The notes below the pieces were generated by a model. The model was not told where the DNA came from and searched no databases. It was given only the letters and a program-made list of their open reading frames with translations. 64,000 bases of DNA. It comes from Candidatus Tayloriibacteriota bacterium (lineage in GTDB: Bacteria > Patescibacteriota > Minisyncoccia > Phycocordibacterales > PALSA-1337). The first letter of the stretch is position 1, and the number at the start of each line of letters is the position of its first letter. The stretch spans positions 87,622 through 151,621 of the forward strand of contig JACRJP010000002.1 of the NCBI GenBank assembly GCA_016215455.1, in the 5' to 3' direction. Positions 17,201 through 63,488 of this stretch are shown here, piece by piece. The position numbers and the translations under genes were made by a program.

Positions 17201-17290
17201 ATTTCCTAGTATTTTGCTTTGAAACACCAACAAAAACAACGAAAACAGTATATAACCTAATTTAATTTTACACAATTCACCTCAACAAAC

Positions 17291-32685: not shown

Positions 32686-32687
32686 TT

Positions 32688-35560: not shown

Positions 35561-35628
35561 GGCTGACGATAAGTAATCCCCTAAAGCTCTACAGAAGAGT
35601 AAAATGACAGTGTATACTATAGGTACGT

Positions 35629-36069: not shown

Positions 36070-36707
36070 TGGCAAAAATATCAGGAACAACTCAAGAATT
36101 TGTACCGATCCGAGAAATACGAGATGGTGTTGTTATCTTGAAAGATGGCTCAATGAGAGCAATCGTTATGGCTTCATCTCTCAACTTTGCTCTCAAATCA
36201 ACAGATGAACAAAACTCTATCATCTATCAGTTTCAGAATTTCATCAACTCTCTTGATTTCTCTGTACAAATCTTTGTGCAATCAAAAAAGCTTGATATAC
36301 GGCCGTATATTAGTCTTCTTGAAGGACGCTATAAGGAGCAGGGTACTGATCTTATGAAGATCCAAACTCGTGAATACATTGAATTCATCAAAACTTTCGT
36401 TGAAAACAGTAATATCATGACAAAAAGCTTCTTTATAGTAATCCCTTATAGTCCTCCTGTTATCAATGACTCTCACAACCCAATCAAAAGTCTCCTCGGA
36501 AACTCATCGAGTGACAAAACAAAGGTGAGTGGCAGTGGATCATTCGATGAAAGTCGAACACAACTTGAACAACGTGTAGGAGTTGTGGAACAAGGTTTAA
36601 CACGCTGTGGAATTCGCGTAGCAGAACTTGGAACAGAGGAAATTGTCGAGCTCTTCTATAAGATATTCAATCCAGGAGACATGGAGAAGCCAATTCAACA
36701 ATCATAA
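36069..36707 (+). CDS. 212 aa soluble protein immediately 5' of the VirB4-like ATPase (possible detached VirB4 N-terminal domain)
   Basis: Start overlaps the upstream stop by 1 nt. Ends in TAA one nt before the ATG of the ATPase gene. Confidence 0.45.
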   Translation: MAKISGTTQEFVPIREIRDGVVILKDGSMRAIVMASSLNFALKSTDEQNSIIYQFQNFINSLDFSVQIFVQSKKLDIRPYISLLEGRYKEQGTDLMKIQTREYIEFIKTFVENSNIMTKSFFIVIPYSPPVINDSHNPIKSLLGNSSSDKTKVSGSGSFDESRTQLEQRVGVVEQGLTRCGIRVAELGTEEIVELFYKIFNPGDMEKPIQQS

Positions 36708-36708
36708 T

Positions 36709-38520: not shown

Positions 38521-38526
38521 AACTCC

Positions 38527-39072
38527 ATGGCACAAAAAGGATCTATGTCAGCAGGAAAGTGGTTCATCCTCTATGTTATTAGTGGTTTTGTTGATCTTCT
38601 CCAAATAATTCTTGATTTTTTTGCTATTGGAATTGTAATCAATAGAGTTATTGATATCTTTTTAGGACTTGGATTACCTATATATCTTCATCTCAATGGA
38701 ATTCCAATGTTCGAGACAAAGAATTTAATGCTCTATATATCTGTATTTATTGGTGAAGAAATTCCTCTTGTTGATGCACTTCCATTATGGACTTTTGAAG
38801 TTTGGCGTATGCATAAGAACTATATAACATCACAATTAACAGAGGCTGTCCCCGCACTTACCCCAACAGCTCAAGCTATGAGTGGTATTAAAAATCCTCA
38901 ACAAACTCCACCTCTTAATAAAGATGGGGTACGCCAGCCACCACAAAGACAACGCGTACAGCAAATTAAGGTCAATACTTCTCAAAAACAACAAGAAGCA
39001 GATATTATATCCCCTGACTTCAATCAAACTTCTGAGAAATCCTCAGATGATGACCTTAAAGAGGCAGCATAG
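38527..39072 (+). CDS. Polytopic small membrane protein with Gln/Pro-rich tail (hypothetical)
   Basis: 3-4 predicted TM helices in the first 110 residues. Confidence 0.45.
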   Translation: MAQKGSMSAGKWFILYVISGFVDLLQIILDFFAIGIVINRVIDIFLGLGLPIYLHLNGIPMFETKNLMLYISVFIGEEIPLVDALPLWTFEVWRMHKNYITSQLTEAVPALTPTAQAMSGIKNPQQTPPLNKDGVRQPPQRQRVQQIKVNTSQKQQEADIISPDFNQTSEKSSDDDLKEAA

Positions 39073-39091
39073 TATGCTAAAATAATAGGGT

Positions 39092-40126
39092 ATGCATTCT
39101 CGTACTCTTAGAATTTTGACTGTCTTCTTCATAACCCTTGTTGTTGTAGGGACACTAGCTTCAACCCCACTCACTGTTTCAGCACAACAACCTTATGATT
39201 CTTTTGCCATTGAAACTACACCAACAAATCCAGCACCCGGACAAAGTGTAGTTGTTCAAGTAAAAAGTCTTTCTTCAGACATCGCACACGCTGATATTGC
39301 TTGGTATGAAGGATCGACCTTACTCAAAAGAGGGAATGGTCTCTCACAAATTACCGTCACAGCCCCAAAAAACGGAACTTCTATGAAGATTACCTCTATC
39401 ATTAGGGCGTCTGATGGAAAATCGTCAACACAGACAGTAACTATCCGCTCTGGTGAGGTTGATATGTCATGGGAAGCTCTAACATACACACCACCTCTAT
39501 ATCAGGGTCGTAGTATCTATACAAGTCAATCGAATATTAAAATTGTCGCACTTCCAAATCTTCGTGATAACAACGGTCGTTTAATTTCTCCTGATGATCT
39601 TGTGTACAAATGGAAAAAAGACTCAACAGTACTCGGAAGTCTTTCTGGATATGGAAAACAGAGCCTTACTCTAAAAGGAGACATTGTATCTCGGCCTTTT
39701 ACAATTACCGTAGATGTTGCTTCTCGCGACAATAGTATTAAAGGTCAAGGTTTTATGAATGTCGATGCTGTTGATCCTGAGGTACTACTCTATGAAGAAG
39801 ATCCTTTGTACGGTGTACTCTACAATCGTGCTGTTGGTGAACAGTTTTCATTAAAAAACGAAACAAAACTTACTGCTGAACCATATTATTTTTCTACAAC
39901 AAACAAAAGTGACTCTGCTTTACGTTATACATGGAGTATTAATCGACTTGAACAAAACGATATTCGAGGAACAAATCTTATCCTACGACCAAAAGGGGAT
40001 GTGGAAGGAGTTTCTTTAATTTCTCTTAGAATTGATAACTTACGAGAAATTCTCCAAAGTAGTTCAGCTGAAATTGGGGCATACTTTAGTAAAAAACAAC
40101 AAGAGGAGCTTCCTTTATTTCAATAA
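39092..40126 (+). CDS. Secreted beta-rich protein (hypothetical, possible surface/adhesin component)
   Basis: Signal peptide MHSRTLRILTVFFITLVVVGTLASTPLTVSAQ. Repeated Ser/Thr-rich beta-like segments. Confidence 0.5.
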   Translation: MHSRTLRILTVFFITLVVVGTLASTPLTVSAQQPYDSFAIETTPTNPAPGQSVVVQVKSLSSDIAHADIAWYEGSTLLKRGNGLSQITVTAPKNGTSMKITSIIRASDGKSSTQTVTIRSGEVDMSWEALTYTPPLYQGRSIYTSQSNIKIVALPNLRDNNGRLISPDDLVYKWKKDSTVLGSLSGYGKQSLTLKGDIVSRPFTITVDVASRDNSIKGQGFMNVDAVDPEVLLYEEDPLYGVLYNRAVGEQFSLKNETKLTAEPYYFSTTNKSDSALRYTWSINRLEQNDIRGTNLILRPKGDVEGVSLISLRIDNLREILQSSSAEIGAYFSKKQQEELPLFQ

Positions 40127-40129
40127 AAT

Positions 40130-41263
40130 ATGAAAAAAATACTTTTTATAATCGCAACTCTACTCATACTCACAAATCCTAGTGAAGGAAAAGCTGCTAT
40201 TCAAAGTTATAAACTACTTGAACCTCTTCCTTGTATCGGAACAACACAAGAATGTGTTGGGGGAAGGGTAGAACAAGTAGATCTCAAATCATACGTAGGA
40301 TACATTTTCAAACTTGTAATTGCCTTAGCTGGTGCTATTGCTGTATTTCGCATTACATGGGGAGGCTTTAAATACATGACGACCGACGCTATATTCGGTA
40401 AACAAGAAGGAAAGAAGGAGGTCAAAGACGCAATATATGGCTTAATCATGATACTTGCCTCATATCTTATACTTCGAACAATTGATCCACGGTTGGTAAA
40501 TATTAATACTGAAATTAAACCAATTGAACAAGCTGAGTACATAGACATGAACTCACTTTTTACTGACGTTGAAGAAGCAAGCAAGACTCTCTCAGAGGCA
40601 AATAAAACAGCCGGTGAATTAAGAGCTCAGATTGCAGCACTCAGAGCCCAGGCGGGAACGACAACGGATGAAGATTTAAGCATTCGACTTCGAACGGAAG
40701 CTCTTAATCTTGAACGTAAGGCTGAGAATATAACAGCAAATGCTGTAGCTGATGTAAATTTCGATTTGGCGAGAAAATCATTACAACAAAATACTGAGGT
40801 TTCTCTAAGCACGTCATTTAAAACCGATCTCGAATCAAGAATAAGAGTTATAGAAAAATCAGTACAAACAAACGTTCAACAACTGACTGATCTCGGAGAT
40901 ATTGATGGGGCAGCAAAACTTAAAGACAAAGGCAACTTCTATGTTATGTCAGTACGAGACGAATTAGATTTTACCGAGAAATTTAAAAAGATTGAAGAGA
41001 TAAATAATACCCGAACCACATGGACGACTGGTTTATGGGGTGGGCCGTATCTATACCTACTTGGAAAAGGTGTTGATAAAATTAAAAGTAAAAATGAATC
41101 TATTGTAGTTGCAGGAGATACTTTGATTAGTGAACTTCGAGCAAAAGAATCAAAAGCTCAACAATCAACAGATCCAGCACTGCAACAAGGCTACCTTGAT
41201 AATCTTCATGAACAAATTAAACAAACAGAAGATTTAATTAAACCACTTCGTCCAAATCCATGA
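40130..41263 (+). CDS. VirB2/TrbC-like pilin-topology domain fused to 250 aa coiled-coil region
   Basis: Signal peptide, then two hydrophobic helices (YIFKLVIALAGAIAVFRITWGGF and IYGLIMILASYLILRTI) separated by a short charged loop. Then a long Ala/Glu/Lys/Gln-rich helical region. Confidence 0.4.
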   Translation: MKKILFIIATLLILTNPSEGKAAIQSYKLLEPLPCIGTTQECVGGRVEQVDLKSYVGYIFKLVIALAGAIAVFRITWGGFKYMTTDAIFGKQEGKKEVKDAIYGLIMILASYLILRTIDPRLVNINTEIKPIEQAEYIDMNSLFTDVEEASKTLSEANKTAGELRAQIAALRAQAGTTTDEDLSIRLRTEALNLERKAENITANAVADVNFDLARKSLQQNTEVSLSTSFKTDLESRIRVIEKSVQTNVQQLTDLGDIDGAAKLKDKGNFYVMSVRDELDFTEKFKKIEEINNTRTTWTTGLWGGPYLYLLGKGVDKIKSKNESIVVAGDTLISELRAKESKAQQSTDPALQQGYLDNLHEQIKQTEDLIKPLRPNP

Positions 41264-42579
41264 AAAAAAGCACAGCATCATTACTTATATTCATAGTTCT
41301 CCTCATTCTTGGAGGGATTGGTTGGTATGTCTATACAACAAAGATTGCCCCACAGACAGGCACAACAGGTACTGATCCTTTTGGAGGATTTAACCCACTT
41401 GGAGGAACTGGCTCTACAGCGGTACCAGCAAATAATCAGGTGCCTACAACCCCTGATAGTCCTACAACAACCACACCGACACCAACCAAACTTCCTTTAC
41501 TACGACAACTTACTATAACACCAGTAGCTGGGGCTATGGCTTCGACAACAGCATCTTCAACAATTGTAAGATATGTTGATCGTGGGGTAGGGCATATATA
41601 TGAAATATCTCTAACTTCAAATGATTCTCAAAAAATCACCAACACAACAATTCCTCGTGTCTATACAACAACATGGAACCGACAAGGTACAGCTGTCATT
41701 CTTCGCTATATCAAAGAGGGAAGTACAATAATTAGTAACTTCTACGCAGACATCATCCCTCCAAAGAAGATTGTTGCGTCCTCTTCACCAAAAACAGCAA
41801 CAAGTACAGCAACCTCAACTATCGTTTCAACCCCAACACCCGTACAAGATGTTGTTGGTGAATTAAAAGGAAGATTTTTCCCAAGTAATATAATTGATAT
41901 AGCTGTTTCACCAAAAGGAGATCGTCTTTTTATCCTGTCCGAGGAAGGTGAGGGGAGTGTTGGATACCTCTCTCGTTTTACCGGAGATACTCGAACACAG
42001 ATATTTAATTCTCCACTTACACAATGGAATGTTGATTGGAATAATGAAGATAGTATTATACTAACCACAAAGGCAACCTACGCAGGTGTAGGTTTTGCAT
42101 ATCTTATTGATCTCAAGAAAGGTACTACAGAAAAGATCCTAGGGCCTTTGCGAGCACTCACAACAAAAGCAAGTACTGATACAACACAGTTATTCTATAC
42201 TTCGAGCGTTGATGGTAAACGCTTTATCTCAAAGATATTTACTCTAAAAGACCAAACTTCTCAGGATGTTGTATTCAGAACTCTCCCTGAAAAGTGTGTG
42301 TGGAGTAAGAAAAACTCTTCAATTATATTCTGTGCGGTACCAACAGACTTACGTGATACAAACCTACCTGATAGTTGGTATCAAGGAAAGGTTTCTTTTG
42401 TTGATACAGTATGGGAACTTGATACAGAAACAGGGGAGGTTCGCCAATTATCTAATCTTCTTGATCAATCAGGAAAGATAATTGATGTTACCAATCCATT
42501 CTTAGATCCAAAAGAAAACTTCCTCATCTTCACAAACAAACGAGACTTGACCCTCTGGTCACTTGATATTCAAGACTAA
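41260..42579 (+). CDS. Membrane-anchored protein with Thr/Pro-rich linker and beta-propeller-like C-terminal domain (hypothetical)
   Basis: N-terminal TM LLIFIVLLILGGIGWYVY, Thr/Pro linker, then repeated beta-strand-like segments. Last gene of the operon. Confidence 0.5.
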   Translation: MKKSTASLLIFIVLLILGGIGWYVYTTKIAPQTGTTGTDPFGGFNPLGGTGSTAVPANNQVPTTPDSPTTTTPTPTKLPLLRQLTITPVAGAMASTTASSTIVRYVDRGVGHIYEISLTSNDSQKITNTTIPRVYTTTWNRQGTAVILRYIKEGSTIISNFYADIIPPKKIVASSSPKTATSTATSTIVSTPTPVQDVVGELKGRFFPSNIIDIAVSPKGDRLFILSEEGEGSVGYLSRFTGDTRTQIFNSPLTQWNVDWNNEDSIILTTKATYAGVGFAYLIDLKKGTTEKILGPLRALTTKASTDTTQLFYTSSVDGKRFISKIFTLKDQTSQDVVFRTLPEKCVWSKKNSSIIFCAVPTDLRDTNLPDSWYQGKVSFVDTVWELDTETGEVRQLSNLLDQSGKIIDVTNPFLDPKENFLIFTNKRDLTLWSLDIQD

Positions 42580-43356: not shown

Positions 43357-43692
43357 TTATATAAGAGAACCCTTTAAAAGGACATTCTTAATTTCGGTTG
43401 TTAATTGTTCTGGCGAGAGGTCTTTTATGTTTGTCTTAAGGACAAGCACCCCTTCATACCCTGGCCGTAGCTCAACCATAAGGTTTTTTAGGCTAGCGTA
43501 CACTCGGCGACGGAGTAAGTTCCTCATAACCGCTGTTGTAGCGACTTTCTTAGGGATTGTAACAGAAAACCGGCTCTGTACAGCGCCGGTTTTCTGAATT
43601 CTCATAAGAAAACGAGGGGAGTGTATTGGTGTTCCCGAAGTAACAACTCGAGCAAATTCTTCGCTTCGAAGTGTACGTGATCGTGGAAGCAT
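43357..43692 (-). CDS. rnpA: Ribonuclease P protein component
   Basis: 111 aa basic protein with RLRRRVYASL-type motif, between rpmH and yidC. Confidence 0.8.
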   Translation of the reverse strand: MLPRSRTLRSEEFARVVTSGTPIHSPRFLMRIQKTGAVQSRFSVTIPKKVATTAVMRNLLRRRVYASLKNLMVELRPGYEGVLVLKTNIKDLSPEQLTTEIKNVLLKGSLI

Positions 43693-43695
43693 GTA

Positions 43696-43830
43696 TTACA
43701 CTGTAATTCGTCGACGTCCTTTTGATCGACGTCGCTTCATAACATTCTTTCCTGCTGTCGACTTTCGACGCTTCAAGAAACCATGTGACCGAGCTCTCTT
43801 TCTTCCTTTAGGTTGATACGTTGTTGACAT
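43696..43830 (-). CDS. rpmH: 50S ribosomal protein L34
   Basis: Reverse-strand translation MSTTYQPKGRKRARSHGFLKRRKSTAGKNVMKRRRSKGRRRITV (44 aa). Below the ORF-track size cut-off. Confidence 0.85.
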   Translation of the reverse strand: MSTTYQPKGRKRARSHGFLKRRKSTAGKNVMKRRRSKGRRRITV

Positions 43831-43908
43831 AACAAAACAACTCTACAGTAAATTTGTATTTTTTTCAAGTGGTTCTTGAGAGGGGAGTAAAAAATATTGC
43901 AGAATTTT

Positions 43909-43947
43909 TTTTCCACAACTTATCAACATAGTTATAAACTTTCCACA
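43909..43947. other. DnaA-box-like 9-mers in rpmH-dnaA intergenic region (oriC candidate, part 1)
   Basis: TTTTCCACA (43909-43917), TTATCAACA (43920-43928), CTTTCCACA (43939-43947). Consensus is TTATCCACA. AT-rich surroundings. Confidence 0.5.
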
Positions 43948-44010
43948 AGTTCTCTAAAATATTAACAACGATATACTATGTTCATCGAATTACTATTTTA
44001 AAAACACATC

Positions 44011-45363
44011 ATGATGACAGATACAACCAAACTCTGGCAAACGGTACTTACTGAAATCGAACTTTCTGTTTCAAAGGCAAATTTTTTGATGTGGTTCAAG
44101 GAAACTTATATTCAAAAGGTTCATGAGGGAGTGGTGTATCTCGGTGTTCCAAGTACTTTTATTCAAGAATGGCTTAATAAGAAGTTTCATAACATCATTT
44201 TACGAGTCCTTCGTGAATCTGATGGCCAAATTCGAGCTTTAGAGTATGTGGTTGTAAAAGATGCAGAGAAACGTAAGGAGGAACCTCAAAAAATAGCAGC
44301 TCAACAGATGACTTCAAGTCTTCCTTTGAATGATTACTATATAAATAAGGACGATAACCTTAATCCTCGATACACTTTTGATAATTTTATCGTTGGACCA
44401 TTCAATGAACTTGCTTTTGCAGCAGCACAAGCAATCATTAAAAAGCCCGGAACCGCATATAATCCATTTTTCATATATGGAAGCACTGGTCATGGTAAAA
44501 CACACCTCATCCAAGCAATAGGGAATCATATAAAAGAGACTCATCCAGGGAAAAAGGTCTTCTATCTCACTTCAGAAAAGTTTGGATCTGACTATGTAAG
44601 CTCTCTACAGGCAAATAAAATTCTTGCTTTCAAGGAAAAGTATCGTAAATACGATGTTTTGATCATTGATGATATCCAATTCTTCTCAAACAAGGAGAAA
44701 TCACAAGAAGAACTCTTCCATTTATTCAACTCTCTCTATGAGGGGAATAAGCAGATCATATTCTCATCAGACAAACACCCTAATTTCATCCCAAATCTCG
44801 AGGATAGACTTCGTTCACGCTTCGGTTCAGGAATGATTATTGATATTCCTATCCCTGATCACGAATCTCGGCTCCAGATTCTTCAAGCAAAAGGTAAGAT
44901 GAATAACCTTAGTATTGATAATGAAGTAGCTCAATTCTTAGCCGCAAATGTAGAGGGAAGTATTCGAGAGCTTGAAGGTGTACTTAATGCGATTATCTGC
45001 CAAACACAACTAAAAGGACGTGCTCTAAGTCTTCTTGAGGTAAAAAATCTTATTAAAAACAGTTCTCGACCTAAAAAAACAGCTTCAGTGAAGGATGTTA
45101 TCAAACTTGTAGCTGATTTCTATAAAATTAGTGAAGATAGTATCTATGACAAGACACGAAAAAAAGAAGTAGTTAAACCTCGTCAGGTAATTATGTACAT
45201 CCTCCGTGAAGATTTCAGTATTTCATATCCATCTATCGGTGAAAAACTTGGTGGGAGAGATCATACTACTGTTATTCACTCTTGTGAGAAGGTAAAAGAG
45301 GATATTAAGGTTGATAGTAACCTCGTACAAGAACTTTCTGAGATTCGTGCGATGATGGCATAA
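44011..45363 (+). CDS. dnaA: Chromosomal replication initiator DnaA
   Basis: AAA+ Walker A GSTGHGKTHL, Walker B LIIDDIQ, and a C-terminal DNA-binding helix-turn-helix. 450 aa. Confidence 0.9.
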   Translation: MMTDTTKLWQTVLTEIELSVSKANFLMWFKETYIQKVHEGVVYLGVPSTFIQEWLNKKFHNIILRVLRESDGQIRALEYVVVKDAEKRKEEPQKIAAQQMTSSLPLNDYYINKDDNLNPRYTFDNFIVGPFNELAFAAAQAIIKKPGTAYNPFFIYGSTGHGKTHLIQAIGNHIKETHPGKKVFYLTSEKFGSDYVSSLQANKILAFKEKYRKYDVLIIDDIQFFSNKEKSQEELFHLFNSLYEGNKQIIFSSDKHPNFIPNLEDRLRSRFGSGMIIDIPIPDHESRLQILQAKGKMNNLSIDNEVAQFLAANVEGSIRELEGVLNAIICQTQLKGRALSLLEVKNLIKNSSRPKKTASVKDVIKLVADFYKISEDSIYDKTRKKEVVKPRQVIMYILREDFSISYPSIGEKLGGRDHTTVIHSCEKVKEDIKVDSNLVQELSEIRAMMA

Positions 45364-45368
45364 AATAT

Positions 45369-45552
45369 TGTGGATATTCTTGTGAGTAAGTTGGGGAATA
45401 CATAATCAAAAGTCTGTGAGTAGTTGAGGATAAGTTTGTTTTTTAAAAAATATTTCCAGATATATGTGAGTAACTCTAATAGAGTGTGGATTATTTTTTA
45501 CAAATTATAAGGCTTTGATTAGGTGTATAATTGAGTTATACCCAAATCCACA
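45369..45552. other. DnaA-box cluster in dnaA-dnaN intergenic region (oriC candidate, part 2)
   Basis: TGTGGATAT (45369-45377), TGTGGATTA (45485-45493), AAATCCACA (45544-45552), each one mismatch from the consensus. Repeated GTGAGTA motifs and AT-rich stretches. Confidence 0.5.
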
Positions 45553-45601
45553 GGACTAATAATGGTGAGTTGGTCTAAATATAAAATAAATACTAATACT
45601 T

Positions 45602-46702
45602 ATGAAAATAGAATGCGTTCGGGATAAGTTAGTTCCAATCCTCCAAAGTGTTGAACGTATTGCGAGTAAGAATCTTTCACTCCCAATACTTTCTTGTATT
45701 TATTTGGAAGCAAAAGATAGTGAATTAATCCTACGAACAACAAATCTTGATGTTGGTGTTGAGATTAGAGTACCTGCAAAAGTTGAAGTTCCTGGTGTAG
45801 TTGCTATTGGAGCCTCAATCCTTACAAGTTTTGTTGCGAGTGTAACACTTGATAAGAATATTAAATTTGAGCTCATTGAGGGTAATCTAAAGGTTACAAC
45901 TGCGCATAACTCAACAATTTTGAAAGCTCAACCAGCGGATGATTTTCCTGCTCTTCCTTCTATTTCAAGCGACGATATGTTTCTTATCAATTCACAAGAT
46001 TTCCTTAAGGGGTTAAAATCTGTGTCATATAGTGCTTCTGTTTCAGGGGTTAAGCCGGAACTCTCAAGTGTTTGTGTGTATTGTGAAGACGGTAATGTTG
46101 TTTTTGTTGCTACAGACTCATTTCGTCTCGCTGAAAAGAAAATAAAGGCTCGAAAAAGTAAGGATTTTGGTCAGATACTCATTCCTGTGAAGAATGTAGT
46201 TGATATTATTCGTGTATTCGATGGAATTGATGCCGATCTTGAGATTGGTTTGAGTAAGAATCAACTCACTATCACATATGAATCAATCTATTTTGTTTCT
46301 CGTGTTATTGATGGAATCTTTCCTGACTACAAACAAATTCTTCCAAAACAATCTACCACTGAAGTGGTAGTACTGAAAAACGATCTAATCGACGCGCTAA
46401 AGCTCTCAAACCTTTTTTCGGATAAGTTCCATCAGGTTAAGATTTCTGTGTCACCAAGCTCAAAATCATTCGAATTAAAAGCAAAGAGTAATGATATTGG
46501 AGAAAATGTTCGTAAGATTGACGCGACATTAGAAGGGGATGATGTTGAAGTTAATTTTAATCAAAAATATATTACGGATTGTTTTCAATCAATCGACGCT
46601 GATAGTATGAGTCTTAGTTTAAGTGGACTTAATCGCCCGATGATTATCCATCCTGTCGGTGGAGGTCAGTTTACTTACCTTGTAATGCCAATGAACCGTT
46701 AG
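45602..46702 (+). CDS. dnaN: DNA polymerase III beta sliding clamp
   Basis: 366 aa; three-domain clamp; directly downstream of dnaA. Confidence 0.85.
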   Translation: MKIECVRDKLVPILQSVERIASKNLSLPILSCIYLEAKDSELILRTTNLDVGVEIRVPAKVEVPGVVAIGASILTSFVASVTLDKNIKFELIEGNLKVTTAHNSTILKAQPADDFPALPSISSDDMFLINSQDFLKGLKSVSYSASVSGVKPELSSVCVYCEDGNVVFVATDSFRLAEKKIKARKSKDFGQILIPVKNVVDIIRVFDGIDADLEIGLSKNQLTITYESIYFVSRVIDGIFPDYKQILPKQSTTEVVVLKNDLIDALKLSNLFSDKFHQVKISVSPSSKSFELKAKSNDIGENVRKIDATLEGDDVEVNFNQKYITDCFQSIDADSMSLSLSGLNRPMIIHPVGGGQFTYLVMPMNR

Positions 46703-55501: not shown

Positions 55502-55567
55502 ATATAACAGGTGGGCACAGTGTTTGTGTCCAGATACCGTTCAACCGCAGCATTTTCCGTAACGTCT

Positions 55568-56089
55568 ATGAAACCCTCGTTCCTTATCAGTCTATTTCTC
55601 ACTCTCGCTACCCTCGTCACGGGTTGCGCCCAGTCAGGTGCAGCTCATCGGGTTTATCCTGGTGGAACAACTAGTTACTCCTCGACTACGTCGACGGAGT
55701 ATCATGTGTCCCGTCCGGGACCGTCGTGGCAGGGTAACAACTTCTACGATCATCCGATCGGAGCGAGTCGGATTACTCCGGTTCGCACGTATCGGAGCGA
55801 GACTTTGGTGGACCTTGGAGTATTCCAACACCATCGAGTGTCAGAGAAGGTAGCCTCTCCAACACTAATTCTGCCAGATGGCAGGTCGGTAACGGAGGTT
55901 ACCCGCTATCAGTCGACTCAAACGTCGACTCGACCCCAGCAGGTCTATCCCACCACATCCTACGGTGGGTTCACTGGTGTCCAGCCCTCCTACATCGATA
56001 ATACGTCGGGGAGGTCGGGTCGCAGTTCATTTCCATCGTCATCGGTGACGGTGACCCCAGTGTCGCCTTTCAGGGCATTGGGTAGGTGA
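55568..56089 (+). CDS. Lipoprotein, Ser/Thr/Arg/Pro-rich, encoded in a conspicuously GC-rich segment
   Basis: MKPSFLISLFLTLATLVTGC signal with lipobox. The ORF track starts at GTG 55511. Codons such as TCG/ACG/GTC/CGG dominate, unlike neighbouring genes. Confidence 0.5.
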   Translation: MKPSFLISLFLTLATLVTGCAQSGAAHRVYPGGTTSYSSTTSTEYHVSRPGPSWQGNNFYDHPIGASRITPVRTYRSETLVDLGVFQHHRVSEKVASPTLILPDGRSVTEVTRYQSTQTSTRPQQVYPTTSYGGFTGVQPSYIDNTSGRSGRSSFPSSSVTVTPVSPFRALGR

Positions 56090-56619: not shown

Positions 56620-57035
56620 AGTAAAAATAAAAAGAGGTTAGGTGCCGGCAGGTAGCGCCCTACACACCACTACACGGGACATATACCCACCGGCACCAAC
56701 TCGAACTTAGGAGGGGGCTTTACTTCCCTCACTACGCCGCAACCCATCCGGGCTCGACATCTTTTCAATAGTTTATGATCAGGTCCGGCGGGCGTAAGCA
56801 ACACACAGCCTGCCCGCCGGACCATCACCCACAACCACAGCTACAACACACAAACTTGCAGGTGACCTCAGTCAGTCAATCCGCGTATCCATGTATCTCT
56901 TAACCTAGCAGTATGGCTGACGAAGATGAAGAGTGATCAAACTATTCTATCTAGCGTAATTGTACGCCCGTAGAGTTTTTGTTGTCAAATTTCTTTTTAG
57001 CACACTTTTTATTTGGTTAGGATATAATCTCATTA

Positions 57036-59495
57036 ATGCCAAAGACACCAGCAAAAACTACGTCACAAGAGCGATTAATCCTTCTTGATGCACATGCAAT
57101 CCTTCATCGTGCATATCATGCTCTTCCTGATTTCATGTCGACGAAAGGAGAACCTACAGGAGCTTTGTATGGTCTTGCAACAATGCTCATTAAGATCATT
57201 CAGGACCTGAAGCCAACATATATTGTTGCGTGTTACGATCTTCCTCAACCAACATATCGTCATGAGGTATATAAGGATTATAAAGCGGGACGTAAAAAGG
57301 CTGAACCTGAGCTTGTCTCACAGATGAAACGGTCACGTGACGTGTTCACTGCTTTTGATATTCCTATATATGACAATCCAGGATTTGAAGCTGATGACAT
57401 GCTCGGTACGATTGTTGAACAGGTTCTCAAAGGAAAAGAATTTAAAAATATCGATGTTGTTATTGCTTCAGGTGATATGGACACTCTTCAGCTTATTGAA
57501 GGAAAAAGAATCCAGGTATACACGTTAAAGAAGGGAATAAAAGATACTATTTTGTACGATGAAGAAGGAGTAATGAATCGATTTGGTTTTGGTCCAAAAC
57601 TTTTACCCGACTACAAAGGTCTTCGAGGAGACACTTCAGATAATATTATCGGTATTAAAGGTATTGGAGAAAAAACTGGCAGTATTCTCATTCAAACATT
57701 CGGTACGATTGAAAATATGTATAAGGAGCTCGATAAGAGCGACGAGCCTTTTAAAAAAGTAGGAATTACTCCACGTATCATAGACCTTCTAAAAAATGGA
57801 AAAGAAGAAGCAATGTTCAGTAAGATGCTCGCTTCAATTCGTCGAGATGCTCCAATTAAATTTTCTTTGCCGCATCCATGGAAGAGTGCTATTGATATGA
57901 AAAAGATCGATATGTTATGTGCAGATCTCGATTTCCGTACTCTCGGTGCTCGTGTTCGTGAAGCTATATCAGGTAAGATTGCATCAACAAAAAATAGCTC
58001 AACACAGTCTTCTGATGAGGGTTATCATGTTGCGTATGGAGAAGGAGAGGGTGATATAGAAACACATGATGGTGATACTCCAGAAACTATCGATGAAAAA
58101 GAATTACAGGAGACATTACTCGCTCTCTGGGTGGCTGATTCAAACAAAACGAATCCAACACTCGATGATATCTACACATTTGCTGGTGTTCGTAACTTTG
58201 CTCAGGCACGTGAGATTATATTCAACGAACTCAAAAAACGTGGAGGTGAAAAGATTCTTGAGACAATAGAAAAGCCACTTACACCTGTTCTTAAAAAGAT
58301 GCAGGACTATGGTATCAAGATTGATGTTACATATCTCAAGAAACTTTCGGAGGACTATCATATTGAGCTCGAAAAGATTCAAAAGAAGATTTGGGAATAT
58401 GCCGGTGAGGAATTTAATGTTGCTTCTCCAAAACAACTAGGTGAAATTTTGTTCGTAAAGATGGGACTCAAGGTAAAGAATCAAAAAAAGACAGGAACAG
58501 GTGCTTTTTCAACAAAAGAATCTGAGCTCGAAAAACTTCGTGAGACACACCCGATTATTGAGGAGATTCTCAAGTATCGAGAATTCGCAAAGCTTTTGGG
58601 TACATATATTGATGTGATTCCTACACTCGTTGATGATGGTAATCGTCTTCATACAACATTTATTCAATCAGGTGCTGCGACTGGTCGCATGGCATCTGAA
58701 AATCCTGGTATTCAAAATATTCCGAATAAGACAGAACTCGGACGCGCTATTCGTCGGGCCTTTATTGCGGAGAAGGGAATGAAGTTGCTTGCATTCGATT
58801 ATTCTCAAATTGAATTACGTATCGCAGCTTTTCTATCAGGTGATGAGAAACTCATTTCTATTTTTAAAAATGGTGAAGACGTTCACACCGCAGTTGCTTC
58901 ACAAGTATTTGGTATTCCGCTTGATAAGGTTGATAAAGAAATGCGACGACAAGCAAAAGTCATTAACTTCGGTGTCATGTATGGTATGGGAGTAAATGCA
59001 TTACGACAAAATCTTGGTACGGATCGTGCTGCTGCTCAGAAATTCTATGATGAATACTTTGCTAAGTTTTCAGGACTCGCAACATATCTTGAAAAGACAA
59101 AAGCAGAGACTGCTCTAAAAGGCTATACTGAGACGTTTTTTGGACGTCGCCGTTACTTCGAGGGTATTCGTTCAAAACTTCCTTTTATCCGTGCATCTGC
59201 TGAACGTATGGCAATCAATGCTCCTATTCAAGGAACTGAAGCGGATATTGTAAAGATCGCTATGATACGAGTGGATGAGTGGCTTACTGAAAAGAAATTC
59301 GGTGATAGTGTTCGTATGCTACTTCAAGTGCATGATGAACTTGTGTTTGAGGTTGAAGAAAAAATGATTCCTAAGATTGTCCCTGATATTCAGAGAATTA
59401 TGCAATCTGTTATTGATCCAAAAGAAACAAAGGGTGTTGTTTGTACAACTGAAGCGAAGGTGGGGGATACATGGGAAGATATGGATAAGTTATAA
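57036..59495 (+). CDS. polA: DNA polymerase I (5'-3' exonuclease + polymerase domains)
   Basis: FEN-type N-terminus (LLDAHAILHRAYHAL). Polymerase motifs RRQAKVINFGVMYGMG and QVHDELVFE. 819 aa. Confidence 0.9.
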   Translation: MPKTPAKTTSQERLILLDAHAILHRAYHALPDFMSTKGEPTGALYGLATMLIKIIQDLKPTYIVACYDLPQPTYRHEVYKDYKAGRKKAEPELVSQMKRSRDVFTAFDIPIYDNPGFEADDMLGTIVEQVLKGKEFKNIDVVIASGDMDTLQLIEGKRIQVYTLKKGIKDTILYDEEGVMNRFGFGPKLLPDYKGLRGDTSDNIIGIKGIGEKTGSILIQTFGTIENMYKELDKSDEPFKKVGITPRIIDLLKNGKEEAMFSKMLASIRRDAPIKFSLPHPWKSAIDMKKIDMLCADLDFRTLGARVREAISGKIASTKNSSTQSSDEGYHVAYGEGEGDIETHDGDTPETIDEKELQETLLALWVADSNKTNPTLDDIYTFAGVRNFAQAREIIFNELKKRGGEKILETIEKPLTPVLKKMQDYGIKIDVTYLKKLSEDYHIELEKIQKKIWEYAGEEFNVASPKQLGEILFVKMGLKVKNQKKTGTGAFSTKESELEKLRETHPIIEEILKYREFAKLLGTYIDVIPTLVDDGNRLHTTFIQSGAATGRMASENPGIQNIPNKTELGRAIRRAFIAEKGMKLLAFDYSQIELRIAAFLSGDEKLISIFKNGEDVHTAVASQVFGIPLDKVDKEMRRQAKVINFGVMYGMGVNALRQNLGTDRAAAQKFYDEYFAKFSGLATYLEKTKAETALKGYTETFFGRRRYFEGIRSKLPFIRASAERMAINAPIQGTEADIVKIAMIRVDEWLTEKKFGDSVRMLLQVHDELVFEVEEKMIPKIVPDIQRIMQSVIDPKETKGVVCTTEAKVGDTWEDMDKL

Positions 59496-59501
59496 AAATA
59501 C

Positions 59502-60215
59502 ATGCTATACGTTTTTTGTGGAGACATTGTAAAAGCAAAGAAAAAAGCGCGCGAGTTAGCGAAGGTACTTCTCACCAAGAAACCTGACGCTTCACTATTT
59601 GAACTTACTCCGGATTCATGGAATGAAGCCGCTTTTCAGGAGTATCTTGGAGGTCAGGGACTTTTTGAAAAAAAATATATTGTTCTCATGCACGAATTAG
59701 CGAGTCATAAACAAACAAAAGACTTTTTTCTTGATAATCTCAAAGAACTTAAGGCTTCTGAAAATGTTTTTGTTCTTGTTGAAGGAGAATTAACAAAAAA
59801 AGATCAAGCTCCTCTTGAAAAAAACGCTGAAAAACTCCAATCGTTTGATGTTTCTGAGAAAATAAATAAAAAAGAATTTAATATTTTTGCTCTTACAGAT
59901 GCAATTGGTCGCCGTGATGCAATTGCTGCGTGGACTATATTTACTCAGGCACAGATGGCAGGAATGGAAGCTGAACAGATTCATGGCATGATTGCATGGC
60001 AACTTAAGGCGATGGCGCTTGCTCAGGTCTCAAAAGATGCAAAATCATCAGGACTCAATCCGTTTGTATTTACTAAAGCTGTGGCTGCTGCAAAGAAATA
60101 TTCACAAGAAGAAGTTGTTTCTCTCTATAACAAGCTCATTCGTGACTATCACAATTCACGTAGAGGAATGATTGATTTTTCTCTTGCTACCGAACAATTT
60201 TTGTTGAGTTTGTAA
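59502..60215 (+). CDS. holA: DNA polymerase III delta subunit-like (HolA-like)
   Basis: Begins MLYVFCGD (the iYllyGed-type start). Three-domain helical architecture. 237 aa. Assignment by pattern only. Confidence 0.4.
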   Translation: MLYVFCGDIVKAKKKARELAKVLLTKKPDASLFELTPDSWNEAAFQEYLGGQGLFEKKYIVLMHELASHKQTKDFFLDNLKELKASENVFVLVEGELTKKDQAPLEKNAEKLQSFDVSEKINKKEFNIFALTDAIGRRDAIAAWTIFTQAQMAGMEAEQIHGMIAWQLKAMALAQVSKDAKSSGLNPFVFTKAVAAAKKYSQEEVVSLYNKLIRDYHNSRRGMIDFSLATEQFLLSL

Positions 60216-60241
60216 AATAAAAATATGAAGCAGAGCTTCAC

Positions 60242-61321
60242 TTAGTAACGGGCAACCTTCCAGCTTATTTTTTGACCTGCTCGGAAGGGGACGATCTTCG
60301 TTACGAATTTTGCCCCATTTCGCACGTCGTAGGCGAGGGGTACCGTCCAAGCCCGCTTCACCATAGTGAGCATTCTGGTTCTCCGCTTAATCCCATAGAA
60401 TGCGAGACCAAACTGACTTGAGAATCCTGCAAGACGTTCGAGAGCCTCATGTTTTTCGAACAATTCAACGAGCAAGGGGAGAGCAACGGGTGTTGTCCAA
60501 ACTCCAGCAGCACAACAATCAGCCTCCTTCTTGTCGAAGGGATGAGGCGCTGAGTCTGTTCCCCAGAAGAATTTGGGATCCCCTGAGATTGCGGCTCGCA
60601 CAAGAGCATCCCGGTCTTCGGGGCGCTTGGCATACGGGCGACACGCATGGTGTGGCCTGAGAAATTCACCTGCTCCAACAGGATCACACAACACATTGTT
60701 GAGGGTGAGAAAGAGATGATGCAAGGTGATACTTGCCGCAACCGTTTTCCCAAGATTTCGAACCAAATCAACAGCCGCTTTGGTGGTGATGTGTTCGAGA
60801 ACAATCCGCAGTGTCGGGAAATCCCGATGAAGTTGTCGAAGATATTCAAAGAAGAATTCTTCTCGATCGAGAACGAAGACATCTCCTCCGACTTCGCCGT
60901 GAATACAGAGAATCACCCCTGTGTCTTCCATGGCTTTGAATGTCGGGTATAGCTCGCGGAGCTTGTCCAAGTCGACACCGTCTGCTGAATTGGTCGTGAC
61001 ACCGACGGGATACATCTTCGCCGCAACAACACCCAACTTCTTGGCTTGAATGATGATATCCGGCGTGGTTTCCATTGTGAGCTTGATGAGGGTAAGTGGG
61101 AGAAACGAAGCGTTTGCTCCTCGGGCTGACCTCATGATGTCCGATTGGTAACGGCAAGCATCCTCACCGGTAAGAATGGGAGGGTTTGTGTTGGGCATGA
61201 CGATCGCACCATCAAAATGTCGTGCCGTGAGTCTCGTGACAAGACGCATGAGAGGACCTTGTCTCAGATGCGTATGCATATCGAAAGGACGAGGGATACG
61301 GAACATGGGAACTGATGTCAT
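60242..61321 (-). CDS. pyrC: Dihydroorotase (E. coli PyrC-type, class II)
   Basis: RPFDMHTHLRQG metal-binding start. Other blocks: AIVMPNTNPP, KMYP..TTNS, HGEV, LEHITT, GTDSAPH. Clearly GC-rich. Confidence 0.85.
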   Translation of the reverse strand: MTSVPMFRIPRPFDMHTHLRQGPLMRLVTRLTARHFDGAIVMPNTNPPILTGEDACRYQSDIMRSARGANASFLPLTLIKLTMETTPDIIIQAKKLGVVAAKMYPVGVTTNSADGVDLDKLRELYPTFKAMEDTGVILCIHGEVGGDVFVLDREEFFFEYLRQLHRDFPTLRIVLEHITTKAAVDLVRNLGKTVAASITLHHLFLTLNNVLCDPVGAGEFLRPHHACRPYAKRPEDRDALVRAAISGDPKFFWGTDSAPHPFDKKEADCCAAGVWTTPVALPLLVELFEKHEALERLAGFSSQFGLAFYGIKRRTRMLTMVKRAWTVPLAYDVRNGAKFVTKIVPFRAGQKISWKVARY

Positions 61322-61413
61322 ATCTCAGTAAGAGTCGTAGTTTATGAATGAACGCTTGATCCATATTACTTACCACAATAAGAAAAGCAAATAAAAATGC
61401 TGCCACAAATTGG

Positions 61414-62415
61414 TCAGCGATATGCGAGCCCCCGCTTATAGCGGATACTCTCATCTATGGTGGTTGCAACCATTGTCGGCGCAAGGAAGGCGATCGATCC
61501 CAACGAAATCGCATCAGCTCCAGCATCCAAGACTTCTTTGGCTGTGCGAGGAGAAGTGATTCCGCCTCCACCGATGATTGGTTTTCTGATTCCAGTGGCG
61601 CGCGCCTCTTTGATCCAACTCGTCACCATTGCGTGAAGAGGGGTTCCTGAGATACCGCCTCTGCCTTTGGGACCGAAGCGGTGTTCAAGAGGCGAGGTTG
61701 TCGTTCCAAAATACGACATCCTCAGTTCATCACTCGCCGCATTCCATGGTAGGGTGTTGAAGACGCATAAGGCTGCACATGCAGGTTCAACTGCAATTGT
61801 TCGTGCGATAGTCACAGGTGTCCCTGGCGAAAGCTTGACGATGTAGGGGACATCGAATTCATCTTTCGCTGCACGGAGCACGGGAACCACTTCGTCGGTG
61901 AACTCAGTGGGGTCGTGTCCTGTGTTGGGACAACTGAAATTAATCTGCACCCCAAATGGAGCCTTGAACTCCGGTTTCTTGTCGCGAAGCATTCGTGTCA
62001 TCGCAACAATTTCAGTAAGGCGTTGCGACGGAGTGTCTGCGACAGACATGATCGAAATCATGAAAGGTTCTGGCCATCTTTGCCAAAATCCTTGCTCGAG
62101 CAGAAATTCCATTCCAGGTCCGGAAAGACCAACTGCATTGATTGCGGCGCCTGTCCGTCGGTTGACGTGGATACATTTCGGCATCCACTCGCAGGGAGTG
62201 ACCCCGTCTGGTTTCAGGGGCATATTTCCTGCCCGAGCGTTCAGGGTAGTGGTCTTGCTCACGAATGTTGAACCATTGAAGTTAAGACCAAAAGGTTTGA
62301 GAAGATGGTGATACCACCAGCCTTTGCCGTGAAAATTACGAACGCCTGATGCGTCGATTACAGGAGAAAAGGGAATTCCCTCGAGATACAGTGTCTCTGA
62401 TCCAAGTGTGTGCAT
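61414..62415 (-). CDS. pyrD: Dihydroorotate dehydrogenase family protein (class 1-like, Cys active site)
   Basis: ASG motif (VIDASGV), active-site NFSCPNTG, FMN-binding PIIGGGGI...AGADAISLGS. GC-rich. Confidence 0.7.
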   Translation of the reverse strand: MHTLGSETLYLEGIPFSPVIDASGVRNFHGKGWWYHHLLKPFGLNFNGSTFVSKTTTLNARAGNMPLKPDGVTPCEWMPKCIHVNRRTGAAINAVGLSGPGMEFLLEQGFWQRWPEPFMISIMSVADTPSQRLTEIVAMTRMLRDKKPEFKAPFGVQINFSCPNTGHDPTEFTDEVVPVLRAAKDEFDVPYIVKLSPGTPVTIARTIAVEPACAALCVFNTLPWNAASDELRMSYFGTTTSPLEHRFGPKGRGGISGTPLHAMVTSWIKEARATGIRKPIIGGGGITSPRTAKEVLDAGADAISLGSIAFLAPTMVATTIDESIRYKRGLAYR

Positions 62416-62509
62416 ATGCGCAGTATGGAGGTGATATGAGCAGTTGAAACTCCCGTAGTTTTAACATACTTTATATATAAAACCAAACCTTAGTTTTTGC
62501 TGTAATTAG

Positions 62510-62582
62510 TGCACCCAGTTGGAATCGAACCAACGACCCTCTGCTTAAAAGGCAGGTGCTCTACCGACTGAGCTATGGGTGC
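62510..62582 (-). tRNA. tRNA-Lys (anticodon UUU), CCA not encoded
   Basis: Reverse complement gcacccatagctcagtcggtagagcacctgcctTTTaagcagagggtcgttggttcgattccaactgggtgca. Confidence 0.8.
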
Positions 62583-62603
62583 AAGTGCATGCAATATACC
62601 ACA

Positions 62604-62960
62604 CTAGAGCGGCCAATCAAGGGCCAGCATACCTGCTCCTGAGAAGATGAGAGAAAGTGACATTGCAAGAAGGAGTATGTAGTAGTTTACTCCCGCAGTG
62701 AGGAATGAACGAGTTTTCATCTTATGAACGAGTTGCACTACGAGAATGAAAGAAGCAACGATTGCAGCGAGTTGTGTGAGAAGACCAACAATGAACAGGA
62801 TACCAAGAATGAGAGTAATGATTCCAAAAAGTACGAGTTCTTTTTCTTTTGTTTTTATTCGTTTGTAGCCGATATAAAAGAATACGACACCGAGCACTAT
62901 ACGAATAATGATTGGAGCGATTAAGTTGTACGTAAGCAAAGTTGGGAACATATTAAGCAT
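62604..62960 (-). CDS. DoxX-family small membrane protein
   Basis: 118 aa, four TM helices, RIVLGVVFFYIGYKRI-type N-terminal motif. Confidence 0.5.
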   Translation of the reverse strand: MLNMFPTLLTYNLIAPIIIRIVLGVVFFYIGYKRIKTKEKELVLFGIITLILGILFIVGLLTQLAAIVASFILVVQLVHKMKTRSFLTAGVNYYILLLAMSLSLIFSGAGMLALDWPL

Positions 62961-62981
62961 ATATGTTAGTATATCACGCGT

Positions 62982-63488
62982 ATGAATAACGTCACGCTAC
63001 TACTCCATGATATTAGAAGTGTCCATAATGTTGGATCTATTTTCCGAACTGCAGAGTGTTTGGGTGTAACAAAGATTGTGGTATCAGGAGTTACTCCGGC
63101 ACCTATTGATCGGTTTGAAAAAAAGCGCGCTGATTTTGCCAAAGTTGCCCTGGGAGCAGAAGATATGGTGCCCTGGGAGATTATTACTGATGCAAAAGAA
63201 TATATCGAAGCCTTTAAACAGGGAAGATTATCAGGAATGACCGAAAAAGGTTTTGTGATTGTTCTTGAACAAGATCAAAAATCTGTAGATTACAAAAAAG
63301 TAGAGGTACCTGTGAATACTCCTGTATTAGTCGTATTGGGTAATGAGGTAAGTGGCGCACCACAAGAGCATCTCAACCTTGCTAATGTCATCGCTGAAAT
63401 ACCTCAAGCAGGTCTCAAAGAATCTCTTAATGTAAGTGTCGCTGCTGCGATTGTTCTTTTTCGATGGTTCGACAATCGAAGTGTATAG
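62982..63488 (+). CDS. SpoU/TrmH-family (SPOUT class IV) RNA 2'-O-methyltransferase
   Basis: HNVGSIFRTAECLG, VLGNEVSG and LNVSVAAAIVL motifs. Confidence 0.75.
   Translation: MNNVTLLLHDIRSVHNVGSIFRTAECLGVTKIVVSGVTPAPIDRFEKKRADFAKVALGAEDMVPWEIITDAKEYIEAFKQGRLSGMTEKGFVIVLEQDQKSVDYKKVEVPVNTPVLVVLGNEVSGAPQEHLNLANVIAEIPQAGLKESLNVSVAAAIVLFRWFDNRSV

Follow-up and report, generated by a model that had tools for sequence, protein, structure and literature searches.

Within a 64 kb stretch of the AT-rich genome of a Candidatus Taylorbacteria-like member of the Patescibacteria, referred to here as the window, two adjacent genes of pyrimidine metabolism, a pyrD-like gene for a dihydroorotate dehydrogenase (DHODH) and pyrC for a dihydroorotase (DHOase), lie directly beside a gene for tRNA-Lys(UUU) (Table 1). 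Both genes are much richer in G+C than the genes around them, and the locus raises the question of whether the pair is a foreign islet inserted at the tRNA gene or a long-standing part of the genome. A preliminary description of this DNA had proposed the former, with a high-GC donor, possibly a host, as the source of two new pathway steps. The comparison with related genomes makes this proposal highly improbable, and the pair can be regarded with good confidence as a resident, conserved and functional operon rather than a foreign islet targeted to the tRNA gene.

Position of the pair in related genomes

Relatives were collected from the Genome Taxonomy Database (GTDB), with one genome per species and at most one matching stretch from each. 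A relative of the PyrD-like protein is encoded in 282 species-representative genomes, and the best 80 of these were taken together with their flanks. The block around the pair has the order SpoU-DoxX-tRNA-Lys-pyrD-DHOase-holA-polA-TsaE-T2SSE. In five loci (L005, L006, L007, L028 and L062, where L006 is the same contig as L002), the pyrD-like and DHOase genes adjoin holA, polA, TsaE and the T2SSE ATPase gene in the order and orientation of the window, and part of the block is found in L061, L018, L030 and L032. The holA-like gene is syntenic in all five and in L030. On the far side of the pair, a DoxX homologue stands at the equivalent position in L006, L028, L062, L061 and L018, and a SpoU gene is syntenic in L002/L006 (from the Pfam gene call), L028, L062 and L061; both DoxX and SpoU are found on this side in L028, L062 and L061. 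Among the six syntenic genomes, the identity is 56–63% for PolA and 55–59% for T2SSE, and these low identities indicate that the block is old. The tRNA-Lys(UUU) gene is kept between DoxX and pyrD in L006, L028, L062, L061 and L018; its adjacency to the pair is therefore inherited synteny and not the scar of an integration. The slot, in which pyrD-pyrC is placed between SpoU-DoxX-tRNA-Lys and holA-polA-TsaE-T2SSE, is ancestral and common to an order- or family-level clade.

In a neighbor-joining (NJ) tree of 60 PyrD sequences, the window protein grouped with those of L005, L006 and L007 (bootstrap 77/100) and then with those of L028 and L030 (bootstrap 88/100). PyrD thus nests with exactly the syntenic relatives, which argues against a foreign islet; the preliminary description had itself named a grouping with the homologues of close relatives as the outcome that would contradict an islet. 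The same description had seen no integrase and no direct repeat of the tRNA 3' end, and this was confirmed. No integrase is encoded near the pair, and the sole tyrosine recombinase of the window, an Xer-like protein at 20176–21132, lies about 40 kb away. The 22-nt 3' end of tRNA-Lys has no second match in the window at up to 3 mismatches, and no repeat of the 3' end was found in L006 at up to 5 mismatches. A scan of positions 59800–63000 gave no relevant repeats either, and the degenerate att repeat that had been suggested as a possible trace of integration was not recovered by either search of the window.

The pair resembles tRNA-associated genomic islands in that it is a compositional outlier adjoining a tRNA gene; however, it differs from them in having neither an integrase nor an att repeat, and in occupying the same site beside the same tRNA gene in distant relatives. 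An islet would be consistent with the outlier status in composition and codon usage, which is real, with the similarity of PyrC to non-Patescibacteria proteins (48–51%), which is as high as that to Patescibacteria sequences, and with the variation at the tRNA-Lys/pyrD junction, where L006 has a 9.3 kb block and two window-lineage assemblies break beside the tRNA gene. Against it stand the synteny of the pair and tRNA-Lys in relatives with about 60% PolA identity, the nested position of PyrD among these relatives, and the absence of an integrase and att repeat. In addition, the GC content of the pair, 51–52%, matches that of the same genes in related Patescibacteria (0.48–0.55) and is not a high-GC (>60%) signature of a donor or host. 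An acquisition that added new pathway steps is likewise contradicted, since pyrD-DHOase is found in the slot of five syntenic relatives and PyrD-like proteins occur across the 282 species. Of the proposed horizontal acquisition, the part that stands is that lateral exchange probably affects this locus; the tRNA-targeted islet does not. Composition and tRNA adjacency alone are thus a poor basis for calling genomic islands in Patescibacteria.

The 9.3 kb block of L006 (positions 646–10000 of that contig) is located exactly at the tRNA-Lys/pyrD junction and encodes FUR, ParA/CbiA-like, AAA_28 and amino-acid-kinase-family proteins, dCTP deaminase, purD and unknowns. Many of its genes are GC-richer than the flanks, and no integrase or att repeat was found there. 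The independent short-read assemblies L001 and L085 of the window lineage stop within or next to tRNA-Lys, 128–147 bp before the start of pyrD, and the L005 and L007 contigs stop 280–410 bp before it. The assembly ends near pyrD, together with the block of L006, suggest that this junction is structurally variable.

At closer range, clustering at ≥90% identity places the window proteins with MBI5126305/6, which belong to a Candidatus Taylorbacteria metagenome-assembled genome, and the Logan contig L085 matches the window at 100% identity across 10.2 kb. In that metagenome-assembled genome, the PyrD-like gene has the locus tag HZA80_00875 and lies on a 245 kb contig. The same arrangement is present in three assemblies from three samples, namely the window (= L085), L001 and L088, which are 98.8–99.4% identical. 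The codons of the pair that differ between the window and L001 comprise 13 synonymous and 2 non-synonymous changes, a ratio that indicates purifying selection on functional genes. The strain divergence in the pair, 0.6–0.9%, is similar to that of the flanks. A chimera of assembly or binning, in which a GC-rich fragment of another organism was joined into an AT-rich contig, would agree with the sharp GC boundaries at the gene ends. However, the junctions recur in L001, L085 and L088, independent assemblies that come from different samples, and on either side the flanks follow the gene order of the relatives; the chimera was rejected and retains a negligible probability.

Composition of the pair and the cause of its GC excess

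The GC content and the GC content at third codon positions (GC3) are 0.512 and 0.511 for pyrC, and 0.518 and 0.500 for the pyrD-like gene, compared with 0.395 (standard deviation 0.020) and 0.294 (standard deviation 0.044) for the 48 other genes of the window. The corresponding z scores for pyrC and pyrD are 5.8 and 6.1 in GC and 5.0 and 4.7 in GC3, and the excess over the background amounts to roughly 12 points in GC and 20 in GC3. The compositional outlier described earlier is thus borne out by the analysis of GC, GC3 and codon usage, and the strongest such outlier of the window lies in a stretch of synteny that ranks among its best conserved. The GC-rich block has sharp boundaries, which coincide with the gene ends. 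In 60-nt windows over the pair, the median GC is 0.52, and the maximum reaches 0.68 in pyrC and 0.63 in pyrD; about 7% of these windows have a GC of at least 0.60, against 0.5% over the whole window, and the median in polA and holA is 0.37–0.38. The value of 65% GC given in the preliminary description is therefore reached as a peak but is not typical. Its account of the amino-acid and codon bias agrees with the present result, in which Arg, Ala, Gly and Pro are enriched, Lys, Asn and Ile are depleted, and the codons CGG, GCC, GGC, CCC and TCG are commoner in the pair. The third positions of the pair are near-equiprobable (G.22, A.23, T.27, C.29), whereas those of the other genes are strongly A/T-rich.

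GC-rich genes are found elsewhere in the window as well. An inositol-monophosphatase-family gene at 11313–12203 on the minus strand (Pfam Inositol_P, with weak HisN/CysQ-like NCBIfam matches) is another GC outlier, with a GC of 0.494 and a GC3 of 0.438. At 55511–56089 on the plus strand, an open reading frame (ORF) of 192 aa, rich in Ser, Thr, Pro and Gly and with a lipoprotein-like N-terminus (…LVTGC), has a GC of 0.547, a GC3 of 0.554 and no Pfam match. It is the coding region most diverged between the strains (96.9%), and the ORF at the equivalent position in L006 is non-homologous and likewise GC-rich (0.583).

For a comparison across the phylum, the GC3 of 55 pyrD genes and 33 partner genes was set against that of 565 neighboring ORFs of at least 200 aa using the Mann-Whitney test. 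The mean GC3 difference (ΔGC3) was +0.050 for pyrD (p = 8.5e-6) and +0.092 for the partner (p = 5e-8). The excess was +0.075 and +0.123, respectively, at a background GC below 45%, and +0.016 and +0.036 at a background GC of 50% or more. A ΔGC3 of −0.10 or lower was found in no partner gene, in 1.8% of the pyrD genes and in 11.5% of the controls. Regressing pyrD GC on flank GC gives a slope of 0.78 and an intercept of 0.15, and at least eight other loci show an excess of +0.15 to +0.25, four of them (L019, L020, L073 and L039) with flanks below 45% GC. Throughout the phylum, this operon thus tends to exceed its surroundings in GC, and the window pair stands at the extreme of this trend. Within the syntenic clade, the GC3 of pyrD stays at 0.46–0.54 while that of the flanks ranges over 0.30–0.52, which indicates that the window pair is GC-typical for the operon and that the genome around it has shifted toward AT.

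Although the slot is conserved, its content is not uniform. Three lineages of DHOase, 23–30% identical to one another, are found in it. The canonical form is present in the window and L005 (349 and 370 bits on TIGR00856), a divergent form in L006 (148 bits), L028 (98 bits), L007 and L061, and a third form in L062 (162 bits); the proteins of L007 and L061 were assigned to the divergent form by their 55–69% identity to that of L006. In the comparison of L006 and L007, which are loci of the GTDB genomes CAYGLL01 and CAYJVZ01, the pair is 69.6% (PyrD) and 68.6% (DHOase) identical, while the flanking proteins are 58.3% (PolA), 57.0% (T2SSE), 40.1% (TsaE) and 35.8% (holA) identical. The pair being more alike than the flanks, the cassette would be younger than the split of the two genomes, which indicates that lineages with the shared synteny have exchanged the cassette. 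Against a flank GC of 0.40, the pair of the AT-rich L007 is moderately raised in GC (0.48/0.45) and is a copy of the cassette that stands at 0.51/0.52 in the GC-richer L006. In L061 and L062, the synteny is kept and PyrD falls outside the clade in the tree. Most individual gene transfers detected in Patescibacteria are reported to have taken place between Patescibacteria (PMC12455944).

Evidence of recombination is also seen among the strains. In the region 58164–62562, the single-nucleotide polymorphisms (SNPs) between the window, L001 and L088 form tight tracts specific to a single strain, for example at 58364–58739 for L001, at 61004–61070 and 61477–61875 for L088, and at 61885–62007 for the window; the last, in pyrD, contains 8 changes within 123 bp, of which 6 are toward G or C. 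Flank and pair are also unlike in which strain bears the singleton differences (chi-square p = 0.0026). The clustered tracts and this contrast point to homologous recombination within the population across the region.

The evidence leans toward recombination acting on the cassette within the conserved slot as the cause of the GC excess, an explanation with slightly less than an even chance of being correct. The cassette would have been replaced by the allele of a relative with about 50% GC, or would have undergone GC-biased conversion, or both. Nearly as likely is strict vertical inheritance under a gene-specific compositional constraint, in which selection, for example on mRNA structure, mRNA stability or codon choice, would hold GC3 near 0.5 on any background with no recent import. 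The steady GC3 of pyrD in all syntenic relatives and the directional character of the excess, which is almost never strongly reversed in the operon genes, are in line with such a constraint. On the other hand, no mechanism is known that keeps synonymous GC high in these two genes alone, and the incongruence between L006 and L007, together with the three DHOase lineages, indicates that the slot has not been inherited strictly vertically. Codon bias driven by expression was rejected as a cause, because NusA, trigger factor, ClpP and PNPase, which are expected to be highly expressed, have an ordinary GC3 of 0.23–0.36.

Several points weigh against the reading of the pair as a resident biosynthetic operon made GC-rich by recombination, and the first two of them also count in favor of a constraint. 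About 15 billion proteins yielded no donor above 54% (PyrD) or 51% (PyrC) identity, and a replacement recent enough to have escaped amelioration would need an unsampled donor. Among the polarized changes in the pair, which come from three strains, 18 are GC>AT and 14 are AT>GC (15:11 at third positions), whereas decay toward the genome GC3 of 0.29 would predict about 71% GC>AT changes. The ratio of 18:14 agrees with the equilibrium of the pair itself (p = 0.60) better than with decay (p = 0.054; third positions 0.10), and the substitution spectrum from these three strains thus leans toward maintenance over a decaying import. The NJ trees are simple distance trees, and that of PyrC is poorly supported, with 22% for the window and L024 and 19% on adding L005. 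Finally, the other genes of the pathway are missing from the 64 kb window, so that the direction and role of the pair discussed below are inferred.

The encoded enzymes and their pathway

To judge from its sequence, PyrC is a canonical type II (homodimer-type, E. coli/Vibrio-type) DHOase. It scores 349.2 bits against the equivalog model TIGR00856 (pyrC_dimer; cut-off 292.95), where its residues 8–356 cover profile positions 3–340 of 341, and it aligns over its full length with the solved DHOases 5vgm (E = 1.4e-78), 4lfy, 3pnu and 1xge. The motifs DMHTH, AAKMYP, HGE, EHIT and DSAPH are all aligned with their equivalents in 5vgm, and match the known binuclear-metal ligands of the E. coli enzyme (HxH, carboxylated Lys, two His and Asp). 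PyrC is like the type II enzymes in its full length, its score above the equivalog cut-off and the retention of every metal-ligand motif, and nothing points to a functional difference; its identity to all database sequences is about 50%. In the same slot, the relatives hold the two other DHOase lineages, with 98–162 bits on TIGR00856. The database matches of PyrC form a continuum of 45–51% identity over several phyla, in which Patescibacteria and non-Patescibacteria sequences are equally similar to it. They include proteins labelled Obscuribacterales, Binatia and Planosporangium (48–51%), and PyrC also resembles the protein of a contig with a pyrC-pyrB-pyrF operon (P0006). Because of this continuum, no donor can be named. 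The donor lineage that BLASTP and phylogenies had been expected to reveal thus did not emerge from either protein, PyrD being grouped with the syntenic relatives and the PyrC tree being poorly supported.

The PyrD-like protein passes the Pfam model DHO_dh (PF01180) with 64.7 bits (cut-off 27) and remains below the cut-off of every class-specific NCBIfam model. The scores are 82.5 bits against a cut-off of 269 for the class 1B catalytic subunit (NF005574), 57.6 against 270 for pyrD_sub1_fam, 33.2 against 301 for the class 1A model NF002702 ('dihydroorotate oxidase'), and 28–41 against 200–477 for the class 2 models, which mostly match the C-terminal part only. The matches to class 2 DHODHs in the Protein Data Bank (PDB) span only residues 252–318 or 156–303, and the protein has a Cys in place of the catalytic Ser of class 2. 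The loop NFSCPN, which contains this residue (C162), aligns with NISCPN of L. lactis DHODB. All 36 homologues compared have K54, N93, N159, S161, C162, K194, N220 and the GGxSG and GGGG motifs without variation, and the conserved residues align with the substrate- and flavin mononucleotide (FMN)-binding positions of DHODHs. In a Foldseek search of the PDB with the AlphaFold2 (AF2) model, whose pLDDT (predicted local distance difference test) is 94.2, the top 50 matches were all DHODHs, of all classes, with a probability of 1.0; the best matches have template modeling (TM) scores of 0.66–0.74 at 17–24% identity.

The DHODH fold, the alignment of the Cys loop and the invariant residues together lead to the prediction that the protein belongs to a divergent clade of Cys-type (class-1-like) DHODHs. 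With the class 1 enzymes (the PyrD subunit of L. lactis DHODB, 1EP1/5UE9; class 1A of Lactococcus and trypanosomatids), it shares the FMN TIM-barrel, the Cys of the N-x-S-C-P-N loop and the Lys and Asn residues. It differs from them in its low identity of 17–24%, its scores below the curated class models, the lack of an adjacent PyrK, and a family insertion of about 15–20 residues (roughly residues 63–85), in which D70, P74, P79 and C81 are conserved. No PyrK-type domain was found among the scanned ORFs of the window, and the neighbors of the gene are tRNA-Lys, DoxX and pyrC. The gene identities given in the preliminary description, a DHOase and a class-1-type DHODH, were thus essentially right, although the class models are not reached.

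A profile of the clade gathered 516 clusters at 50% identity (E ≤ 1e-30) among 1.84 billion representatives. Among the six listed matches of the PyrD-like protein with source names, three are called 'hypothetical' or 'uncharacterized' and one 'HisA/HisF-related TIM barrel protein', and a literature search found no paper describing this DHODH clade or the pyrD-pyrC pair of Patescibacteria. In two homologues, P0300 (755 aa) and P0301 (749 aa), a LAGLIDADG intein is inserted at about profile position 159, a site that corresponds to the catalytic N-x-S-C-P-N loop.

Across the Patescibacteria, 33 of 59 loci have the DHOase gene immediately after pyrD in the same orientation, separated from it by a median of 15 bp, and the other neighbors of pyrD are not conserved outside the clade of the window. 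The pair is accompanied by pyrF in 4 loci and by weak to moderate pyrE-like matches (26–39% identity) in 5, and in the L087 contig, pyrE-pyrD-pyrC-pyrF adjoins genes like those of a type IV secretion system (T4SS; a TraC/TraG block). As in bacterial pyr operons, exemplified by pyrC-pyrB-pyrF of the P0006 contig and pyrE-pyrD-pyrC-pyrF of L087, consecutive pyrimidine steps are encoded co-directionally in the window; however, the window has the two middle steps only, and no aspartate transcarbamoylase (ATCase) gene is near the pair in the Patescibacteria loci examined. A Pfam scan of the 64 kb window, covering most ORFs of at least 100 aa, found none of pyrB, carAB, pyrE, pyrF and pyrK, and tblastn with Patescibacteria PyrE and PyrF gave no match there. 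A scan for ATCase motifs (ST[RK]TR + HP[TSC]Q) found none in the window or within 10 kb of pyrD in the 80 loci. The completeness of the pathway, a matter raised in the preliminary description, is thus answered in part: pyrB, pyrE, pyrF and carAB were not found at the scope of the window, and pyrE and pyrF occur beside the pair in some Patescibacteria. According to a preprint, complete de novo nucleotide synthesis is missing from 93% of Patescibacteria genomes, and its genes have a scattered phylogenetic distribution (bioRxiv 10.64898/2026.06.21.733656). The locus presents a divergent, poorly annotated DHODH-like family paired with a DHOase in a phylum that is generally said to lack this synthesis.

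The most economical reading of the pair is that it would perform the two middle steps of the pathway, from carbamoyl-aspartate through dihydroorotate to orotate. PyrC would interconvert N-carbamoyl-L-aspartate and dihydroorotate, and the PyrD-like flavoenzyme would oxidize dihydroorotate to orotate, with a soluble electron acceptor such as fumarate inferred from the lack of a PyrK partner encoded nearby. A non-biosynthetic role is unlikely, whether as the reverse route from orotate through dihydroorotate to carbamoyl-aspartate, serving as a catabolic route or redox sink, or as the turnover of other cyclic amides or dihydropyrimidines in the manner of a dihydropyrimidine dehydrogenase and amidohydrolase pair. 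It would be compatible with the window having no ATCase, carbamoyl-phosphate synthetase (CPSase), orotate phosphoribosyltransferase or orotidine monophosphate decarboxylase, with the lack of an ATCase-motif ORF near pyrD in the 80 loci, with the incomplete nucleotide synthesis reported for most Patescibacteria (bioRxiv 10.64898/2026.06.21.733656), and with the PyrD-like scores below all curated DHODH equivalogs. However, PyrC lies above the DHOase equivalog cut-off with its ligands intact, the PyrD-like protein keeps the residues aligned with the DHODH substrate- and FMN-binding positions, and pyrE and pyrF flank the pair in several Patescibacteria, which fits a flow of orotate to uridine monophosphate.

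What is new here is modest, namely a DHODH clade that is divergent and poorly annotated, and an oddity of composition that can be measured. In a wider and rather doubtful reading, the PyrD-like protein would belong to a class of Cys-type DHODH that is undescribed and carried largely by Patescibacteria, with about 500 clusters at 50% identity, no PyrK partner and a family-specific insertion. The two-gene DHODH-DHOase cassette would be repeatedly swapped by recombination, within the conserved slot and between Patescibacteria lineages, and this exchange, or the GC-biased conversion accompanying it, would keep the cassette GC-rich in AT-rich genomes. If this reading is true, nucleotide-scavenging episymbionts could make orotate from the carbamoyl-aspartate or dihydroorotate of their host, with neither ATCase nor CPSase. 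For ultra-small genomes, the systematic GC3 excess of the operon could help to tell apart the effects of import, biased gene conversion and selection.

Layout of the locus and other features of the window

As shown in Table 1, the pyrD-pyrC pair lies downstream of tRNA-Lys(UUU) on the same strand. Both ORFs and the tRNA gene were found where the preliminary description had placed them, apart from a tRNA boundary that is called here at 62509–62582, and the AT-richer spacer it had noticed is present as well. The spacer is 100% identical across all three strains. Behind pyrC, a consensus scan matched a stem at 60241–60225 followed by ATTTTTATTT, which, as a pattern match only, marks a putative pyrC terminator. 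Apart from this plausible terminator, the scan for promoters and terminators gave counts no higher than those of shuffled sequences.

Table 1. Coordinates of the pyrD-pyrC pair and of the features flanking it in the window.
Feature	Position	Strand	Remarks
polA	57036–59495	+	GC3 0.282; served as yardstick of vertical descent
holA-like (DNA polymerase III delta)	59502–60215	+	Pfam DNA_pol3_delta_C; GC 0.371; convergent with pyrC
Terminator-like hairpin and T-run	60215–60241	-	immediately 3' of the pyrC stop; convergent with the end of holA
pyrC, dihydroorotase	60242–61321	-	359 aa ORF; second gene of the pair
pyrD-pyrC spacer, AT-richer, 92 bp	61322–61413	-	pyrD stop to pyrC start; read from sequence
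pyrD-like, dihydroorotate dehydrogenase	61414–62415	-	333 aa ORF; first gene of the pair
Leader, tRNA-Lys to pyrD start, 93 bp	62416–62508	-	read from sequence
tRNA-Lys(UUU)	62509–62582	-	ARAGORN and Rfam (74 bits); co-directional with pyrD-pyrC
DoxX/DoxD-family membrane protein	62604–62960	-	Pfam DoxD; upstream flank
SpoU-family RNA methyltransferase	62982–63488	+	Pfam SpoU_methylase E = 1.3e-27; outer flank

The intergenic region between TsaE and polA (56620–57035) contains, at 56620–56920 on the minus strand, a GC-rich segment (about 0.55) that lacks an ORF and matches nothing in Rfam, even at E ≤ 1. Its minus-strand fold has an energy of −126.4 kcal mol−1 (z = −4.96 against shuffles), with a perfect 12-bp stem GGTCCGGCGGGC/GCCCGCCGGACC and a T-run at the end, and it is the most strain-variable segment, with 96.2% identity to L001. 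This segment may be an unannotated structured RNA.

The remaining window is typical of Patescibacteria, with type IV pilus genes, a T4SS-like block, PNPase, RNase Y and dnaA-dnaN. The region 43357–46702, which contains rnpA, yidC, dnaA (44011–45363) and dnaN (45602–46702), coincides with the minimum of the cumulative GC skew at about 41–45 kb and is probably the replication origin; the pyr pair is located about 16 kb from it. The T4SS-like cluster at 30098–42579 consists mostly of large unannotated ORFs, with PrgI-family, TraG/VirB4-like P-loop and T4SS-pilin-like proteins among them, and the TraC/TraG block adjoining the pyr genes of L087 resembles this cluster. At 15970–17365 on the minus strand, four tRNA genes, for Gly(UCC), Pro(UGG), Gly(GCC) and Arg(UCG), form a cluster that is interrupted by an ORF with an RNHCP domain at 16066–16410.

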